In this document: in pieces, positions 57,597-58,492 of the stretch
Layout: every line of letters begins with the position of its first letter
Position numbering within the stretch: position 1 is the stretch's first letter
Origin: a virus
DNA length: 64,000 nucleotides
Strand: one strand, 5' to 3'
UHGV virus genome: UHGV-0092003
The notes under the pieces: model-generated
Told to the model about the DNA's origin: nothing
The model's database searches: none
Seen by the model: the letters and a program-made list of their open reading frames with translations, nothing else
Translations under genes and position numbers: made by a program

Positions 57597-57857
57597 ATGA
57601 TTTTCAGACAGAGACATTATCTGTTCATTCGCGAACACAATAAGCATTCTCGCTTCGAGGGGCGCAACGACGCTACATGGGGGCGTGATTACTCTTATCG
57701 TATCGCGCAGAGCGGTCTGGACTCACTGTCGAAGTATGGGTATGGCCTGATATCGCAGCACGAATCGAAAACTGGTGAGGCGGTATATTACGATCGCAAC
57801 CTGAATATTCTGACCGACGAACAGATTAAGGCTGCTCTCAGAGGGGAATTAGCATGA
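57597..57857 (+). CDS. Hypothetical protein (86 aa)
   Basis: ATGA-coupled to the HD-domain gene. Confidence 0.4.
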   Translation: MIFRQRHYLFIREHNKHSRFEGRNDATWGRDYSYRIAQSGLDSLSKYGYGLISQHESKTGEAVYYDRNLNILTDEQIKAALRGELA

Positions 57858-58492
57858 ATATCATCGACAAGGCTCAAATGTTCGCGGCCGGCGCCCACGC
57901 TGGTGTAGGCCAGAAGCGCAAATATACCGGTGAGGATTACATCACTCACCCGATTGCAGTGGCCGAGATTGTTCGCAACAACGGCGGAACTGACGAAATG
58001 ATCGCAGCGGCAATGCTCCACGACACCATCGAGGATACACAGGTCACGTTCGGTCACATCTTCAGTATGTTCGGGGACCGCGTTGCTGAAATGGTCGATG
58101 CGCTGAGCAACAAGGCCAAGCCAGAAGACGGCAGTCGTGAGACGCGATTCTTTATCAACGTCCGTGCGCTACGTGAGCGACTCGACATGCAGAGCCGCGT
58201 CATTAAGCTGGCTGACCTGATTCACAACACTCAGTCAATTACGAAGTACGATCAGAAATTCGCGGCGCAATACCTGGCTGAAAAGGCGTTCATGTTGAGC
58301 GTGATATTCAGAGGTGTCGAGATTGGTGCGTCTGATGAAGAGATTGAGTCCAGAGTCGGCGACCACCCTCTTTTGGTTGAAGCGGAAAAGATTGTCGCCA
58401 CAGCGCTTTCCCGACTTCCCGATGAGTTGTTCTTCAAGTCAGATCGAATTAATGCCGGTCTGATGGAGAAATGGAAGTCGATGGAAGCCTGA
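57854..58492 (+). CDS. HD-domain protein resembling the (p)ppGpp hydrolase domain of Rel/SpoT (small alarmone hydrolase-like)
   Basis: AHAGVGQKRKYTGEDYITHPIAVAEIV...AAAMLHDTIEDT...FGDRVAEMVDALS...IKLADLIHN follows the SpoT HD-domain consensus. Confidence 0.7.
   Translation: MNIIDKAQMFAAGAHAGVGQKRKYTGEDYITHPIAVAEIVRNNGGTDEMIAAAMLHDTIEDTQVTFGHIFSMFGDRVAEMVDALSNKAKPEDGSRETRFFINVRALRERLDMQSRVIKLADLIHNTQSITKYDQKFAAQYLAEKAFMLSVIFRGVEIGASDEEIESRVGDHPLLVEAEKIVATALSRLPDELFFKSDRINAGLMEKWKSMEA

Follow-up and report, generated by a model that had tools for sequence, protein, structure and literature searches.

A predicted stand-alone small alarmone hydrolase of a Klebsiella pneumoniae phage-plasmid: family, genetic context and candidate roles

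We analysed a 64,000-nucleotide (nt) stretch of DNA from the virus genome UHGV-0092003 (hereafter the window) and examined a gene at positions 57854..58492 of its + strand, an ATG-to-TGA open reading frame (ORF) encoding 212 amino acids (aa). Our conclusion is that the product is likely to be a stand-alone small alarmone hydrolase (SAH) of the RelA/SpoT homologue (RSH) superfamily, related to the PaSpo subfamily and carried on a Klebsiella phage-plasmid, with the mechanism and role proposed below. A preliminary description of this DNA had called the gene a phage-encoded hydrolase of the Rel/SpoT type. The coordinates and length that it gave were reproduced exactly, and the SpoT motifs on which it relied are all present in the translation: HPIAVAEIV (residues 32-40), AAMLHDTIEDT (52-62), FGDRVAEMV (73-81) and KLADLIHN (118-125). 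Chance could not plausibly account for such agreement.

Family, active site and fold of the protein

In Pfam searches the protein matched HD_4 (PF13328; E = 3.2e-18), with residues 7-137 aligned to positions 1-134 of the 156-position profile and a score of 66.4 bits against a curated gathering threshold of 27.2 bits; the only other match was a weak one to HD. This search had been proposed as a check in the preliminary description, and the protein passed it. The HD_4 domain (approximately residues 7-137) is followed by a helical C-terminal region, and no synthetase, TGS or ACT domain was detected by Pfam, in agreement with the earlier statement that the protein stands alone with a single hydrolase domain. 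PHROG 990, annotated as 'metal-dependent phosphohydrolase', was matched at E = 4.5e-40, and TIGR00691 (spoT_relA) at E = 4.1e-25 through the N-terminal hydrolase part of the model only. The NCBIfam TIGR00691 and SpoT equivalog models cover residues 5-131 of the protein, with 88 bits compared to a cut-off of 499 that applies to full-length proteins. A sequence search of the PDB returned 22 chains, essentially all of them Rel/SpoT hydrolase domains or SAHs, including Acinetobacter baumannii SpoT (1e-15), Bacillus subtilis Rel (5e-14), RelSeq, MESH1, Aph1 and the Pseudomonas aeruginosa SAH. The top match was Lmo0812, a protein to which the PDB gives no functional name. The match to Aph1 (7smg; E = 1.8e-9, query TM-score 0.50) was weaker than those to Rel/SpoT and MESH1.

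Active-site residues were assigned by pairwise alignment with human MESH1. The MESH1 sequence we used is residue-for-residue identical to that of PDB entry 3nr1, so the published residue numbering could be applied. H32 corresponds to MESH1 H35, H56-D57 to H61-D62, and D121 to D122, and these four residues are the predicted Mn2+ ligands; the His and Asp ligands on which the preliminary description depended are thus all in place. E60-D61 aligns with the catalytic pair E65-D66 of MESH1. Candidate substrate contacts are R22-K23 (MESH1 R24-K25), Y29 (Y32) and N125 (N126), along with K118. In an alignment of 40 homologous sequences, with identities down to 43%, the metal, catalytic and substrate-contact residues were invariant in 40 of 40, as were H15, T62, G93, R95 and R98.

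An AlphaFold2 model built from the 40-sequence alignment is all-helical, with 12 helices, and was obtained at high confidence (pLDDT 95.4, pTM 0.91); the part outside the HD_4 match continues this fold as a helical extension. When this model was compared with the PDB using Foldseek, the 50 best matches were all RSH hydrolases. MESH1 ranked first (target TM-score 0.79-0.83, root-mean-square deviation 2.0-2.7 A), followed by Corynebacterium glutamicum RelH, the P. aeruginosa SAH, a Leptospira SAH and Rel/SpoT hydrolase domains. Relative to homologues of 165-190 aa, the protein has a clade-specific insertion at approximately residues 153-170 and an extra C-terminal helix at 190-211.

Taken together, these features make it very likely that the protein belongs to the class of Mn2+-dependent hydrolases of 3'-pyrophosphate esters, and that it is unregulated in the absence of the other SpoT domains. 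We infer that H32, H56, D57 and D121 would hold the Mn2+ ion and that, with E60 and D61, the enzyme would hydrolyse the pyrophosphate on the 3'-OH of a purine ribose. On this basis (p)ppGpp and (p)ppApp would be expected as substrates, as would tRNA with a pyrophosphorylated 3'-CCA end. The synthetase domain and the regulatory domains found in SpoT are missing from the protein, which for that reason should be active as soon as it is produced. The preliminary description was right about the hydrolase, but it overlooked tRNA 3'-CCA ends as a further substrate of the enzyme class, and also that the family had already been characterised.

The closest characterised relative comes from Salmonella phage SSU5. 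SSU5_099 (AFL47026.1) was the best match among phage records, 53% identical and colinear over 212 of 213 aa. It is the sole homologue of the hydrolase in SSU5, and we therefore take it to be the 'SSU5 SAH (PaSpo subfamily)' of Jimmy et al. 2020. The window protein is placed only provisionally near the PaSpo subfamily (Atkinson 2011; Jimmy 2020), by the proxy of full-length colinearity with this presumed representative. When expressed in Escherichia coli, SSU5 PaSpo neutralised all five validated toxSAS toxins, CapRel, PhRel, PhRel2, FaRel2 and FaRel (PMC7229694). It counters both (pp)pApp-producing and tRNA-pyrophosphorylating toxSAS (PMC7229694, PMC11559606), and it has since been used routinely to detoxify CapRel, PhRel2 and FaRel2 during their expression (PMC11559606 among such papers). 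In both proteins the HD core is followed by the insertion, and both have the C-terminal helix that is missing from shorter homologues. Both are carried by SSU5-supergroup phage-plasmids, behind the same upstream element and near a DUF4942 methylase. They differ at 47% of residues, and only the SSU5 protein has been tested experimentally.

MESH1 of human and Drosophila (3nr1, 5vxa, 3nqw), the best structural match, is likewise a single-domain protein with identical metal and catalytic residues; at 22-28% identity and 179 aa, however, it lacks the 153-170 insertion and the last helix, and it is found in metazoans and also acts as an NADPH phosphatase. The hydrolase domains of long RSH proteins (SpoT and Rel; 7qpr, 8acu, 6yxa, 1vj7, 6s2t) carry the same catalytic motifs and rank with the best matches by sequence (E = 1e-15 to 1e-12), whereas the window protein has none of their synthetase, TGS and ACT domains and hence none of the reciprocal regulation of hydrolysis seen in SpoT and Rel. 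ATfaRel, the SAH-type type IV antitoxin of the FaRel module, belongs to the same enzyme class, with the same expected chemistry. Like SSU5 PaSpo, it neutralises all tested toxSAS (PMC7229694), and both MESH1 and ATfaRel restored aminoacylation of pyrophosphorylated tRNA in vitro. Other phage SAHs, such as PbcSpo of Salmonella phage PVP-SE1 and those of jumbo phages, Sashaviruses and Rhizobium phages, are also stand-alone HD_4 proteins, and PVP-SE1 PbcSpo neutralises toxSAS as well (PMC7229694). Unlike the window protein, most are 140-190 aa long, align only to residues ~1-155 at 30-49% identity and have no C-terminal extension.

Orphan status and cassette structure

ATfaRel is encoded beside its toxin, and this is where the window hydrolase departs from it. 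Its neighbours are ORF86, an 86-aa reading frame, and a DUF4942 methyltransferase gene, with no adjacent, co-oriented toxSAS gene. The RelA_SpoT synthetase domain (PF04607) was not matched by Pfam in any of 30 ORFs of the window, and no gene named synthetase is listed in the incomplete gene table of a sibling plasmid of 111.5 kb. Many proteins of the element have no Pfam match at all, and a very divergent synthetase could have escaped these searches. With no synthetase domain found, we rejected a cis-encoded toxSAS toxin-antitoxin pair and regard the gene as an orphan hydrolase, not an antitoxin.

ORF86 (57597..57857, + strand) lies directly upstream. Its stop codon overlaps the start codon of the hydrolase in the tetranucleotide ATGA (57854-57857), so the pair is apparently co-transcribed and translationally coupled; a Shine-Dalgarno-like GAGGGG lies 7 nt 5' of the hydrolase ATG. 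Downstream, an intrinsic-terminator-like hairpin at 58502..58525 (+ strand; 10 pairs, 5 of them G-C, followed by a T-run) begins 10 nt after the hydrolase stop codon. The two genes form a cassette in which transcription seems to end at this hairpin. Repeat-family and pattern searches placed a promoter/operator-like element on either side. The first copy, at 57527..57584 on the + strand upstream of ORF86, marks the left boundary and consists of the palindrome AAACAACTTGTTT, the extended -10-like sequence TGTGATAAT and then AGAAAACAAC. The second copy, at 58539..58596 on the same strand, is 72% identical to the first and marks the right boundary. Immediately downstream of it, at 58597..60288, is the gene for a 563-aa protein with DUF4942 and methyltransferase (MTase) domains.

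ORF86 matched phrog_11469 (E = 2e-25), a family with no assigned function, and had no match in Pfam or PADLOC. Its homologues were found in 1,784 plasmids, mostly large and conjugative (~87% conjugative), and in one conjugative plasmid the homologue sits between glycogen and arsenic operons, a setting that gave no clue to its function. Far fewer plasmids, 421, carry a homologue of the hydrolase. ORF86 is also absent upstream of the hydrolase in SSU5 and in pJN2-26. Given its wider spread and its absence from these two elements, ORF86 is neither an obligate partner of the hydrolase nor specific to it. A dedicated partner or toxin was likewise ruled out as a function for ORF86, on the basis of its lack of Pfam and PADLOC matches, the breadth of its family in plasmids and the activity of SSU5 PaSpo without it.

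The element that borders the cassette belongs to a larger repeat family, in which the palindrome AAACAAnTTGTTT is followed after ~20 nt by TGnGATAATAA and, ~8 nt further on, by AGAAAACAA. The final 14 kb of the window contain five copies of ~58 nt (57527-57584, 58539-58596, 61141-61198, 61434-61491 and 63676-63733), each just 5' of a + strand gene. The palindrome is also located at 1225, 22150, 22175, 30293, 32069, 47801, 49744, 53968, 55461, 58590, 62363 and 62896. Chance would predict 0.41 occurrences of the palindrome by itself in the window, where there are 16, and 0.08 in 16.6 kb of SSU5, where there are 12; one of the SSU5 copies is directly 5' of SSU5_099. The repeated element looks like a combined promoter and operator for a putative global regulator of SSU5-group phage-plasmids. 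On that reading, ORF86 and the hydrolase would be transcribed from an element that recurs ahead of many of the replicon's genes, and the hydrolase would fall within a co-regulated set that includes the methylase.

Comparison with a sibling plasmid, NZ_AP024176.1, revealed the boundaries of the cassette. This plasmid has neither ORF86 nor the hydrolase, and a divergent pair of minus-strand genes runs directly into the methylase. In local BLAST alignments the missing segment is bracketed in the window by the two copies at 57527..57584 and 58539..58596, and at the junction in NZ_AP024176.1 (7952-8009) the flanking repeat is present once. The absent cassette amounts to ~955 bp (window 57584-58538). 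This arrangement suggests that the cassette was gained or lost by recombination between repeated promoter elements. Base composition showed no clear anomaly pointing to recent foreign acquisition of the gene.

The replicon and the distribution of the hydrolase

Over its last 14 kb the window shares 99% identity with the K. pneumoniae plasmid pMB7868_2 (NZ_CP103584.1, 111.5 kb), and 62 related plasmids were found in Klebsiella, Escherichia, Shigella and Citrobacter. By megablast there was no match at near-identity among phage DNA records; the element is deposited among plasmids. Genes for RepB and ParB occur on pMB7868_2 alongside those for terminase, portal, major capsid, tape-measure and tail-fibre proteins, and it also has nrdAB, thymidylate synthase, dihydrofolate reductase (DHFR), PhoH, ligase and helicase. 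The replicon is a ~110 kb K. pneumoniae phage-plasmid of the SSU5 supergroup, whose Klebsiella members constitute the pKpn group of Pfeifer et al. 2021 (PMC7969092). The term phage-encoded, as used in the preliminary description, needs correcting in one respect, as the carrier is a phage-plasmid.

The hydrolase is 100% identical to RefSeq WP_064383417.1, named 'HD domain-containing protein'. Of 50,697 phage records, 409 contained a homologue, those of jumbo phages, Sashaviruses, Rhizobium phages and Streptococcus prophages among them, and the match reached a coverage of at least 80% in 186 of the plasmids with a homologue. Two alleles of the hydrolase are found in Klebsiella phage-plasmids, with ~51-53% identity between them: that of the window and an SSU5-like one present in P0055 and in Klebsiella phage pJN2-26 (4001-4642). 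A DUF4942 methylase lies near the hydrolase in the window, SSU5 and pJN2-26, and gene order relative to this methylase differs between the two types. In SSU5 the element leads directly into the hydrolase, downstream of the methylase, whereas in the window ORF86 intervenes and the pair is upstream of the methylase.

Several other genes of the window deserve mention. Two DNA methyltransferases flank the accessory region that contains the hydrolase: a Dam-like N6-adenine methyltransferase (PF05869) at 51129-51782, and the DUF4942 protein at 58597-60288, which matched phrog_6263 and, weakly, the PADLOC mad2/MTase_II models. A 288-aa protein with a MazG-like PRA-PH domain (PF01503) is encoded at 44783-45649, beside nrdAB, thymidylate synthase and DHFR, and is a second candidate nucleotide-pyrophosphate hydrolase on the element. 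At 16225-18237 there is a 670-aa CobT/VWA-domain protein (PF11775, E = 2e-55) that adjoins an AAA ATPase (18335-19585). Finally, a 105-aa product of 55973-56290 combines a lipoprotein-like N-terminus with a TonB C-terminal domain (PF03544); PGAP names it 'energy transducer TonB', and it is too short to be a genuine TonB.

Candidate roles and significance

The benefit of such an enzyme is likely to be that an infected or induced cell keeps translating. We infer that it could do so by reversing the action of abortive-infection toxins of the toxSAS/CapRel type, by lowering the host stringent response, or both; the two routes seem about equally plausible and are not mutually exclusive. K. pneumoniae has a CapRel that has been tested as a defence system. 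The stringent response is known to restrict some phages, and a phage countermeasure has been documented (PMC13483052). The roles suggested in the preliminary description, namely degradation of (p)ppGpp or (p)ppApp against stringent or toxin-based defences, or reprogramming of host metabolism, agree with the published data on SSU5 PaSpo (PMC7229694, PMC11559606).

Several observations weigh against our overall interpretation. At 53% identity to the tested enzyme, the window protein could have a different substrate range. The published neutralisation assays relied on heterologous expression in E. coli, and the cited literature on phage SAHs contains no test during native infection. MESH1 is an NADPH phosphatase as well as the best structural match, and the physiological substrate of SAHs is therefore not settled. 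A related Klebsiella SSU5-like plasmid was not inducible as a phage (PMC8969562), which leaves a part in lytic growth uncertain; the paper on that plasmid mentions neither the hydrolase gene nor its expression. The cassette is missing from at least one sibling plasmid and must be dispensable for the element. Lastly, a strict sigma-70 scan identified no site upstream of the cassette.

Within the preferred interpretation, the roles can be ranked. The enzyme may serve mainly in counter-defence, a view that we hold tentatively. It would strip the 3'-pyrophosphate placed on tRNA by CapRel or FaRel2 and degrade the (pp)pApp made by FaRel-type toxins, and abortive infection would fail. Four of the five toxSAS countered by SSU5 PaSpo target tRNA, the K. 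pneumoniae CapRel has been tested as an anti-phage system, the gene is part of an accessory cassette, and its two DNA methyltransferase neighbours fit an anti-restriction or accessory region. Set against this, the assays in the cited literature were made outside native infection, and no PADLOC match bears on this role; hydrolysis of tRNA pyrophosphate is a prediction for this protein.

It is also conceivable, and we would go no further than that, that the enzyme acts mainly on (p)ppGpp. Suppression of the stringent response would then allow synthesis of rRNA, ribosomes and nucleotides to continue during replication or lysis-lysogeny decisions. The closest PDB sequence matches are mostly long Rel/SpoT domains, which rank ahead of most stand-alone SAHs, and the element invests heavily in nucleotide supply through nrdAB, thymidylate synthase, DHFR and the MazG-like PRA-PH protein. 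The documented restriction of phages by the stringent response, and the countermeasure to it, point the same way. However, hydrolysis of ppGpp is only predicted, for this protein and for SSU5 PaSpo alike. Constant removal of ppGpp in the plasmid state would also probably be costly to the host, which argues for tight repression and not for a housekeeping function.

A more specific proposal combines the genetic and biochemical arguments, and we consider it unlikely to hold in full. ORF86 and the hydrolase would constitute a mobile, repressor-controlled counter-defence cassette of SSU5-supergroup phage-plasmids, belonging to a regulon with AAACAAnTTGTTT as its operator and switched on at infection or induction. 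The cassette would be gained and lost by recombination between the repeated promoters, its hydrolase would serve in Klebsiella chiefly to repair RNA, removing pyrophosphate from tRNA 3' ends to overcome CapRel-type immunity, and ORF86 would act as a helper.

It seems improbable that the main beneficiary is the lysogen, with the enzyme made in the plasmid state and shielding the host, in the manner of an orphan immunity gene, from the (p)ppApp toxins of competitors such as Tas1-like type VI effectors. SAHs do hydrolyse (p)ppApp and protect against such toxins. An accessory gene on a long-lived plasmid would suit such a role, and the related plasmid p2 alters host phenotypes (PMC8969562). Against this, the dedicated (p)ppApp hydrolase Aph1 is a comparatively distant match, and the operator-like element is common to many phage-type genes, which suggests repression in the plasmid state.

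We consider it highly improbable that the protein is no alarmone enzyme at all, but another HD enzyme (an NADPH or nucleotide 2'/3'-phosphatase, a PhnZ-like oxygenase or a dNTPase) or an inactive relic: MESH1 does act on NADPH, a bacterial orphan SAH is reported to be metabolically promiscuous (PMC9765508), and there are weak NCBIfam matches to HD oxygenases (PhnZ/TmpB; E = 0.0035-0.1), but the latter are far under the cut-offs and cover the metal-binding helices only, which led us to reject the oxygenase reading; RSH-specific residues beyond the bare HD motif (R22-K23, Y29, E60-D61, N125) are invariant, the 53%-identical SSU5 enzyme acts on toxSAS products, and a relic would hardly have kept its active site intact and conserved.

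The enzyme class, its phage-borne form and the action of a 53%-identical relative as a laboratory neutraliser of toxSAS were already known. With its closest relative characterised, the hydrolase is an ordinary further member of a known family, and the first reading of the gene was correct. What is added here is a diverged allele and its context, namely its orphan status, the structure of its cassette and the shared promoter/operator-like element, and no new principle. SSU5-group phage-plasmids occur frequently in clinical Klebsiella, E. coli and Salmonella. A hydrolase of alarmones and tRNA pyrophosphate that is constitutively active could allow such elements to bypass both the stringent response and abortive infection by toxSAS of the CapRel type, a matter of relevance to host range and to the design of phage therapy.

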